Source: Escherichia phage vB_EcoM-RPN226. Taken from it: a stretch of DNA of 64,000 bases. Made by a program: the position numbers and the translations under genes. The DNA is taken from sequence record OL770073.2. One strand, given 5' to 3'. The notes under the pieces are model-generated. The model ran no database searches. It had not been told where the DNA came from and was given only the letters and a program-made list of their open reading frames with translations. The stretch's first letter is position 1, and the number at the start of each line of letters is the position of its first letter. Shown here piece after piece: positions 38,071 to 38,767 of the stretch.

Positions 38071-38312
38071 TGTCTGAACAAACTATTGAACAAAAACTGT
38101 CTGCTGAAATCGTAACTCTGAAGTCTCGTATCCTTGATACGCAGGACCAAGCGGCTCGTCTGATGGAAGAATCCAAAATTCTGCAAGGAACTTTGGCTGA
38201 AATTGCTCGTGCAGTAGGTATCACTGGCGATACTATCAAAGTTGAAGAAATCGTTGAAGCTGTCAAGAATCTTACTGCTGAATCTGCTGATGAAGCAAAA
38301 GATGAAGAATAA
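38070..38312 (+). CDS. 57A: tail fiber assembly chaperone gp57A
   Basis: 80 aa [36 protein letters not shown]... matches remembered T4 gp57A. Confidence 0.9.
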
Positions 38313-38767
38313 TGGAATTTAAAGACTTTTCAACGGGTCTTTATGTAGCAGCTAAGTTTTCAGAATTAACACTTGATGCGCTGGAAGAACTCCAGCGCTC
38401 TTTACGTGTTCCTAATCCAGTTCCTAGAGAAAAAATTCATTCGACCATATGTTATTCAAGAGTAAATGTTCCATATGTTCCATCGAGTGGAAGTTTTGAA
38501 GTAGCTTCTTCTGGACATTTAGAAGTATGGAAAACACAAGATGGATCGACTCTTGTAATTGTACTAGATTCTGAATATCTGCGCTGTCGACACATGTATG
38601 CGCGAGCACTAGGTGCTACACATGATTTTGATGATTACACACCGCATATAACATTGTCTTATAATGTTGGACCCTTATCATTTAGCGGTGATGTACAAAT
38701 TCCGGTCGTATTAGATCGTGAATACAAAGAGCCTCTTAAACTCGATTGGGCAGACGATTTAAAATAA
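38312..38767 (+). CDS. 57B: 2H phosphoesterase gp57B (Acb1, anti-CBASS cyclic-nucleotide phosphodiesterase)
   Basis: 151 aa with two H-x-T/S motifs (HSTICYS and HITLSY); position after 57A. Confidence 0.85.

Follow-up and report, generated by a model that had tools for sequence, protein, structure and literature searches.

Gene 57B of Escherichia phage vB_EcoM-RPN226 was studied within a window of 64,000 nucleotides, i.e. the whole stretch of DNA that was analysed, in which the gene order around it is that of phage T4: genes 2, 3, 1, 57A and 57B are followed by an internal head protein (Ip) gene, small ORFs, eight tRNA genes and a segB-like ORF (Table 1). The upstream neighbours of 57B are as in T4, namely gene 1, which encodes a dNMP kinase (PF21448), and 57A, the product of which differs from T4 gp57A by one amino acid. 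Downstream, the Ip gene occupies the same place as in T4, and the candidate promoter motifs as well as the hairpin behind 57B are likewise the same in both phages. The closest records are those of Tequatrovirus phages, with about 98% DNA identity.

Table 1. Features of the 57A-57B locus and the second anti-CBASS gene (positions are those of the window).
Feature	Position	Strand	Description and basis
MotA-box-like element with TATAAT	around 37306-37331	+	ahead of gene 1; motif match only
T4 late-promoter consensus TATAAATA	37707..37714	+	in gene 1, 363 nt upstream of 57A; motif match only
MotA-box-like TTTGCTTTA, 11 nt, TAAATT -10	37810..37835	+	candidate middle promoter in gene 1; motif match only
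57A	38070..38312	+	tail-fibre assembly chaperone, 80 aa; Pfam PF17594 GP57, E=5.2e-51
57A stop / 57B start overlap TAATG	38310..38314	+	one shared base; stop TAA 38310-38312, ATG 38312-38314
57B (acb1) coding sequence	38312..38767	+	ATG start, 151 aa, TAA stop; predicted anti-CBASS 2H phosphodiesterase
First catalytic motif H43-S44-T45 (T4 H44/T46)	38438..38446	+	start of HSTICYS; H and T invariant in the 10-sequence alignment
Second catalytic motif H112-I113-T114 (T4 H113/T115)	38645..38653	+	start of HITLSY; invariant in the 10-sequence alignment
C-terminal lid, residues 144-151 LDWADDLK (T4 145-152)	38741..38764	+	includes W146 (T4 W147); identical to T4
14-bp perfect stem-loop	38789..38820	+	just 3' of the 57B stop; folding
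Acb2 (T4 vs.4)	48667-48933	+	predicted cyclic-oligonucleotide sponge, 88 aa; Pfam PF24729, E=1e-19; PDB 7UQ2 'Vs.4', E=2.8e-54

The gene that follows 57B (38840-39112, plus strand) encodes an internal head protein (PHROG 7673, E=5e-54) that has only its first 7-9 residues (MKTFKEF) in common with T4 IPI; this common stretch may correspond to the leader by which T4 internal proteins are packaged. Judged from its sequence and place, it is a different Ip allele in the ipI position. T4 IPI itself inhibits a type IV restriction enzyme. The interval from the Ip gene to the tRNA cluster (39171-39643, plus strand) contains ORFs of 60 aa (PHROG 1692) and 95 aa (PHROG 2023), where T4 has trna.4, trna.3 and trna.2; their sizes fit trna.4 (61 aa) and trna.2 (95 aa), and nothing in this interval seems to correspond to the 136-aa trna.3. 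The tRNA cluster itself (39741-41099) comprises genes for Gln, Leu, Gly, Pro, Ser, Thr, a tRNA with CAU anticodon (Ile in T4) and Arg. The seventh and eighth of these are separated, as in T4, by a segB-like ORF of 221 aa (40354-41019, plus strand), which is likened by its position to T4 segB, annotated as a GIY-YIG homing endonuclease. When positions 37000-42500 were searched against Rfam, only the eight tRNAs reached threshold, and no RNA family was found over 57B or its flanks. Further downstream, denV, which lies intact between ipII and vs.8 in T4, is represented by a remnant of only 7 codons (MTRINLT; 46348-46420, plus strand), after which the frame breaks. The gene order there is e, a 98-aa Ip-like ORF, the denV remnant and a 198-aa ipIII-like ORF, and a six-frame search of the window for two other denV peptides did not find them.

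A preliminary description of this DNA had assigned to 57B a product of 151 residues with the motifs HSTICYS and HITLSY, and both the reading frame and the motifs, which begin at residues 43 and 112, were indeed found in place. The two motifs have hydrophobic flanks (IHSTI and PHITL). Shuffling of the 57B protein yields two bare H-x-[TS] motifs in 16.6% of cases, and at least two motifs with hydrophobic flanks (phi-H-x-T/S-phi) in 0.24%. Since the bare pair is that frequent in shuffled sequences, the motif pair alone constitutes weak evidence for the identity of 57B, and we regard whole-protein homology, not the motifs, as decisive for the predicted assignment. Indeed, the Pfam profile PF23474 (Acb1) matches the 57B product with E=6.6e-60 and 201.5 bits (cut-off, 27 bits), and does so over its entire length (profile positions 1-144 of 144). 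Two minus-strand ORFs within 57B, of 61 and 47 aa, were taken as chance ORFs.

Activity-guided fractionation of lysate from infected cells led to the T4 57B product, which was given the name Acb1 (Hobbs et al. 2022, Nature 605:522; PMC9117128), in agreement with the earlier statement that T4 57B is the founding Acb1. An alignment to this protein (NP_049750.1; T4 genome NC_000866), which had been proposed as a check, yields identity at 150 of 151 residues, with the catalytic histidine pairs conserved. The sole change in the protein, I83 in the window for L84 in T4, is conservative and lies outside the named functional residues. At the DNA level, 7 of 456 positions differ, six of them synonymous and one conservative, as purifying selection would give. 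The catalytic tetrad, the base-stacking residues, the adenine-reading Glu and the C-terminal lid are common to the two proteins; all nine catalytic or nucleobase-contacting residues reported for T4 Acb1 are present in the window protein, with the numbering lowered by one (PMC9117128). For example, the stacking aromatics Y11, W73, F106 and W146 correspond to Y12, W74, F107 and W147 of T4, and E140 corresponds to E141, which touches the adenine N6 (PMC9117128). When ten homologues of different lineages, from the Straboviridae and related groups, were aligned, H43, T45, H112 and T114 proved invariant, down to 36% identity, and so did Y11 and several structural residues. The assignment of the product to the 2H phosphoesterases on account of its two HxT motifs was thus borne out, as H43/T45/H112/T114 align to the tetrad of Acb1.

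The same comparison bears on whether 57B might be a decaying or inactive copy, Acb1 being a liability against Panoptes-type guard systems. Acb1 can trigger type I and type II Panoptes guard systems, from which phages escape by acb1 mutation (PMC13577387; PMC12657230; bioRxiv 10.1101/2025.08.21.671373), and both natural acb1 nonsense alleles (e.g. Bas43) and laboratory escapers have been described in T-even phages (PMC13577387; PMC12657230). The ORF in the window, however, is full length, without frameshift or premature stop, its product retains the lid and every catalytic and binding residue, and relative to T4 synonymous changes outnumber non-synonymous ones by 6:1. We therefore consider a decayed 57B extremely unlikely; an inactive allele of the Bas43 kind was ruled out by the intact ORF and functional residues.

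The best match among solved structures is Acb1 of Erwinia phage FBB1 (PDB 7T26, apo; 7T27, with 3'3'-cGAMP; E=7e-62), which is identical to the window protein at 95 of 141 residues (67.4%), in an alignment interrupted by one gap of one residue. The two proteins agree in both HxT motifs and in the lid tryptophan, and FBB1 Acb1 carries F in place of W73 and Y in place of F106, both of them conservative changes. The crystal structure 7T26, at 1.1 A, was described by its authors as a 2H fold, with the HxT/HxT tetrad formed by H44, T46, H113 and T115 (PMC9117128), and FBB1 Acb1 serves here as the structural template for fold and mechanism. A single-sequence AlphaFold2 model of the 57B product had a mean pLDDT of 43.7 and a pTM of 0.33, too low for the model to be used; we infer the 2H fold of the product from its 67% identity to 7T26. 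In our reading, 57B of this T4-like (Tequatrovirus) phage is almost certainly the orthologue of T4 57B/acb1 and would encode a small, metal-independent 2H phosphodiesterase that destroys the CBASS signal; none of the observations speaks against this identity. It is an already known gene, the orthologue of a well-characterised protein, and as such an ordinary finding.

LigT belongs to the 2H phosphoesterase superfamily. The product of 57B could be read as a LigT-like 2'-5' RNA ligase, or as a cyclic phosphodiesterase acting in RNA or tRNA repair, and several annotations point in this direction: PHROG 755, which matches the product with E=1.7e-67, is described as 'RNA ligase', the RefSeq name of T4 57B and of many orthologues is 'RNA ligase' as well, and the only Pfam match besides Acb1 is a weak one to PF13563 (2_5_RNA_ligase2; E=0.15). 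Besides, the eight tRNA genes lie about 1 kb from 57B, and the chemistry of Acb1 does go via a 2',3'-cyclic phosphate. The match to PF13563, however, scores 12.5 bits where 27 are required and is limited to residues 94-122, i.e. the region of the second HxT, so that LigT-type membership was rejected as below threshold, and an NCBIfam scan of the product up to E=1 returned no family. Moreover, the near-identical T4 protein was found by its cleavage of cGAMP, an activity that is gone from the lysates of T4 delta-acb1; this mutant grows normally without CBASS and suffers a more than 300-fold defect only on hosts with CBASS. Similarly, in transposon mapping (HIDEN-SEQ) 57B proved dispensable when K-12 was the host, but was depleted, and hence conditionally essential, on a host with CBASS. 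In the Acb1 literature consulted, no ligase activity of the 57B family is reported (PMC9117128; bioRxiv 10.1101/2025.08.21.671373). A role as RNA ligase or in RNA repair seems very improbable to us, and the label 'RNA ligase' looks like an annotation transfer at the level of the superfamily.

The 2H phosphodiesterases include the viral 2'-5'-oligoadenylate phosphodiesterases, i.e. coronavirus NS2a/NS4b and rotavirus VP3, and the poxvirus cGAMP phosphodiesterases (bioRxiv 10.1101/2025.08.21.671373). With this superfamily Acb1 shares the two H-x-T/S motifs and a metal-independent transesterification via a 2',3'-cyclic phosphate (PMC9117128; bioRxiv 10.1101/2025.08.21.671373). It differs from its 2H relatives in its substrates, which are 3'-5' cyclic di- and trinucleotides instead of RNA ends or 2'-5' oligoadenylate, and in the presence of the C-terminal lid.

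For the predicted Acb1 of the window, substrates, chemistry and CBASS phenotype are carried over by analogy from the literature on the T4 and FBB1 enzymes. T4 Acb1 is a cyclic-oligonucleotide phosphodiesterase that does not cleave cGG, cA4 and 3'2'-cGAMP; the reaction of Acb1 is metal-independent and proceeds to a 2',3'-cyclic phosphate and then to a linear product with 3'-phosphate, the C-terminal lid (residues 145-152) shuts over the ligand, and the H44A/H113A mutant of T4 is inactive (PMC9117128). With the lid deleted, Panoptes activation was lost, and the authors read the lid as needed for catalysis (bioRxiv 10.1101/2025.08.21.671373). In T4 infections the activity of Acb1 shows from about 15 min onwards. 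In the enzyme of the window, a cyclic di- or trinucleotide would be held in a U-shaped pocket, with Y11, W73, F106 and W146 stacking on the bases, E140 reading the adenine N6 and the lid (144-151) shutting over the bound ligand. The H43/T45/H112/T114 tetrad would provide acid-base catalysis, by which the 2'-OH of the adenosine attacks the 3'-5' bond, and the resulting 2',3'-cyclic phosphate intermediate would then be opened to the linear 3'-phosphate, e.g. from 3'3'-cGAMP to GpAp. With the signal destroyed in this way, CBASS effectors would never be activated.

At the junction of 57B with 57A, stop and start codon share a base. The 20 nt that precede the 57B ATG pair with the anti-Shine-Dalgarno sequence at only -1.0 kcal/mol, and those neighbouring genes whose start codons are trusted all pair more strongly (gene 2, -11.2; gene 1, -9.3; 57A, -3.9 kcal/mol). 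A tight 57A-57B junction was found in 8 of the 10 Straboviridae lineages sampled: it reads TAATG in the window, JD18, avDM4, DLP3 and PVA8, TGATG in T4, GTGA in Muldoon and TGAttATG in RB49, and the flanking DNA of these junctions is otherwise unconserved across lineages. RB49 has a strong GGAGG ahead of its 57B homologue. In Yersinia phage JC221 and Klebsiella phage KMI9, a spacer of 51 nt separates 57A from 57B and contains a GC-rich terminator-like hairpin with a T-run (AAAGGGGC...GCCCCTTTTTT). The Acb1 homologues of these two phages (JC221, comparison sequence L005, 1107-1665; KMI9, comparison sequence L009, 1107-1782) also possess a C-terminal extension, with 168 aa and 207 aa, respectively, versus 151 aa here. 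JC221 and KMI9 represent another regulatory and domain arrangement around the same enzyme core.

According to the preliminary description, 57B is translationally coupled to 57A by the overlap; the TAATG overlap is present, and the coupling itself is deduced from it rather than observed. The overlap, the weakest Shine-Dalgarno pairing nearby and a junction that is tight in eight of the ten lineages make coupling plausible, and we think it probable that ribosomes ending at the 57A stop restart at the overlapping ATG of 57B. Alternatively, 57B might be an Acb1 that is translated independently of 57A, in which case the one-base overlap would reflect the tight packing of genes typical of T4-like genomes. 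Overlaps of one and four bases are common in this genome, and gene 1 (37357..38070) shares a base with 57A as well. Furthermore, the strong GGAGG of RB49 and the hairpin spacer of JC221 and KMI9 indicate that the enzyme does not need coupling, which would be dispensable across the Acb1 family. Against independent translation in the window, however, stands the nearly absent Shine-Dalgarno pairing of 57B as compared to genes 1 and 2, along with the persistence of the TAATG-type junction in lineages where the proteins are only 38-46% identical and the flanking DNA is unconserved. On this evidence we regard independent translation as rather unlikely, though conceivable, and prefer the coupling of 57B to 57A.

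The junction also touches the length of the protein. In T4, 57B is annotated to begin one codon further upstream, at another ATG (gaagaATGATGgaa), giving 152 aa. In the window, a G-to-A change converts this upstream ATG into ATA and, at the same time, the TGA stop of 57A into TAA (T4 TGATG, within 6405-6414 of comparison sequence L001; window TAATG, within 38308-38316). The upstream ATG is also absent in JD18, avDM4, DLP3 and PVA8, the more distant lineages with TAATG. With the second ATG as the conserved initiation codon, the difference between 151 and 152 aa and the shift of the residue numbers by one are explained. The true length of T4 Acb1 may be 151 aa, and the published residue numbers (H44, H113 etc.) would then be one too high.

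Two of the candidate promoter motifs can be compared directly with T4: the late motif at 37707 has the same sequence and position there, and the MotA-like box at 37810 is identical, with the same offset of -260. T4 57B is expressed in the middle and late phase (PMC13478754), with which the retention of late and MotA-type motifs is consistent. Promoter use at 57A-57B is deduced from these motifs, and the transcription of 57B would probably start, jointly with that of 57A, at middle and late promoters within gene 1 and ahead of it. A generic sigma-70 scan detected 16 promoter-like sites versus 17.7 expected in shuffled sequence, i.e. no excess, and a terminator scan detected one terminator-like site versus 2.5 expected. 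Such generic scans are uninformative for T4 middle and late promoters, and the T4-specific motifs were searched directly.

At the end of 57B, the 86-nt stretch 38760-38845, which comprises the perfect stem-loop and a smaller hairpin upstream of it, folds with a dG of -21.2 kcal/mol (z=-5.07). The stem of the larger hairpin is identical in T4. This hairpin overlaps a sigma-70-like sequence, TTTACA-17-TACTAT (38781-38809), with TACTAT in and around the loop and TTTACA just upstream. The hairpin may constitute the 3' end, or a stabiliser, of the 57A-57B message, combined with a promoter of the Ip gene.

A further reading, which we find doubtful and put forward as speculation, is that the TAATG junction with its near-absent Shine-Dalgarno pairing acts as a dosage and timing device that ties the synthesis of Acb1 to that of gp57A. 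If this were true, the nuclease would be kept low and confined to the middle and late phase, which might suffice to blunt a late-firing CBASS and yet limit the loss of Panoptes decoy nucleotides. The terminator and separate start of JC221 and KMI9 would then be a different regulatory solution.

57B is one of two anti-CBASS genes in this phage; the other, encoding the predicted Acb2, lies in the same window at a distance of about 10 kb, and its product contains the ligand-binding residues Y8 and T68. Acb2 is like Acb1 in its purpose, the removal of the CBASS signal, but has an unrelated fold and sequesters the signal without cleaving it. The presence of both Acb1 and Acb2 reportedly exposes T-even phages to detection by Panoptes systems (PMC12657230).

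Only 2 of the 25 best DNA matches name 57B as Acb1 or cyclic phosphodiesterase, and most of them call it 'hypothetical protein' or 'RNA ligase'. The practical value of the present assignment is the correct annotation of the gene; it opens no new biological question. By analogy with the characterised enzymes, a phage with intact Acb1 and Acb2 should resist CBASS signalling with adenosine-containing 3'-5' cyclic di- and trinucleotides, and should at the same time be sensitive to Panoptes-type guards that respond to nucleotide depletion. The Acb1 and Acb2 content is thus relevant to the prediction of host range for therapeutic T-even phages.
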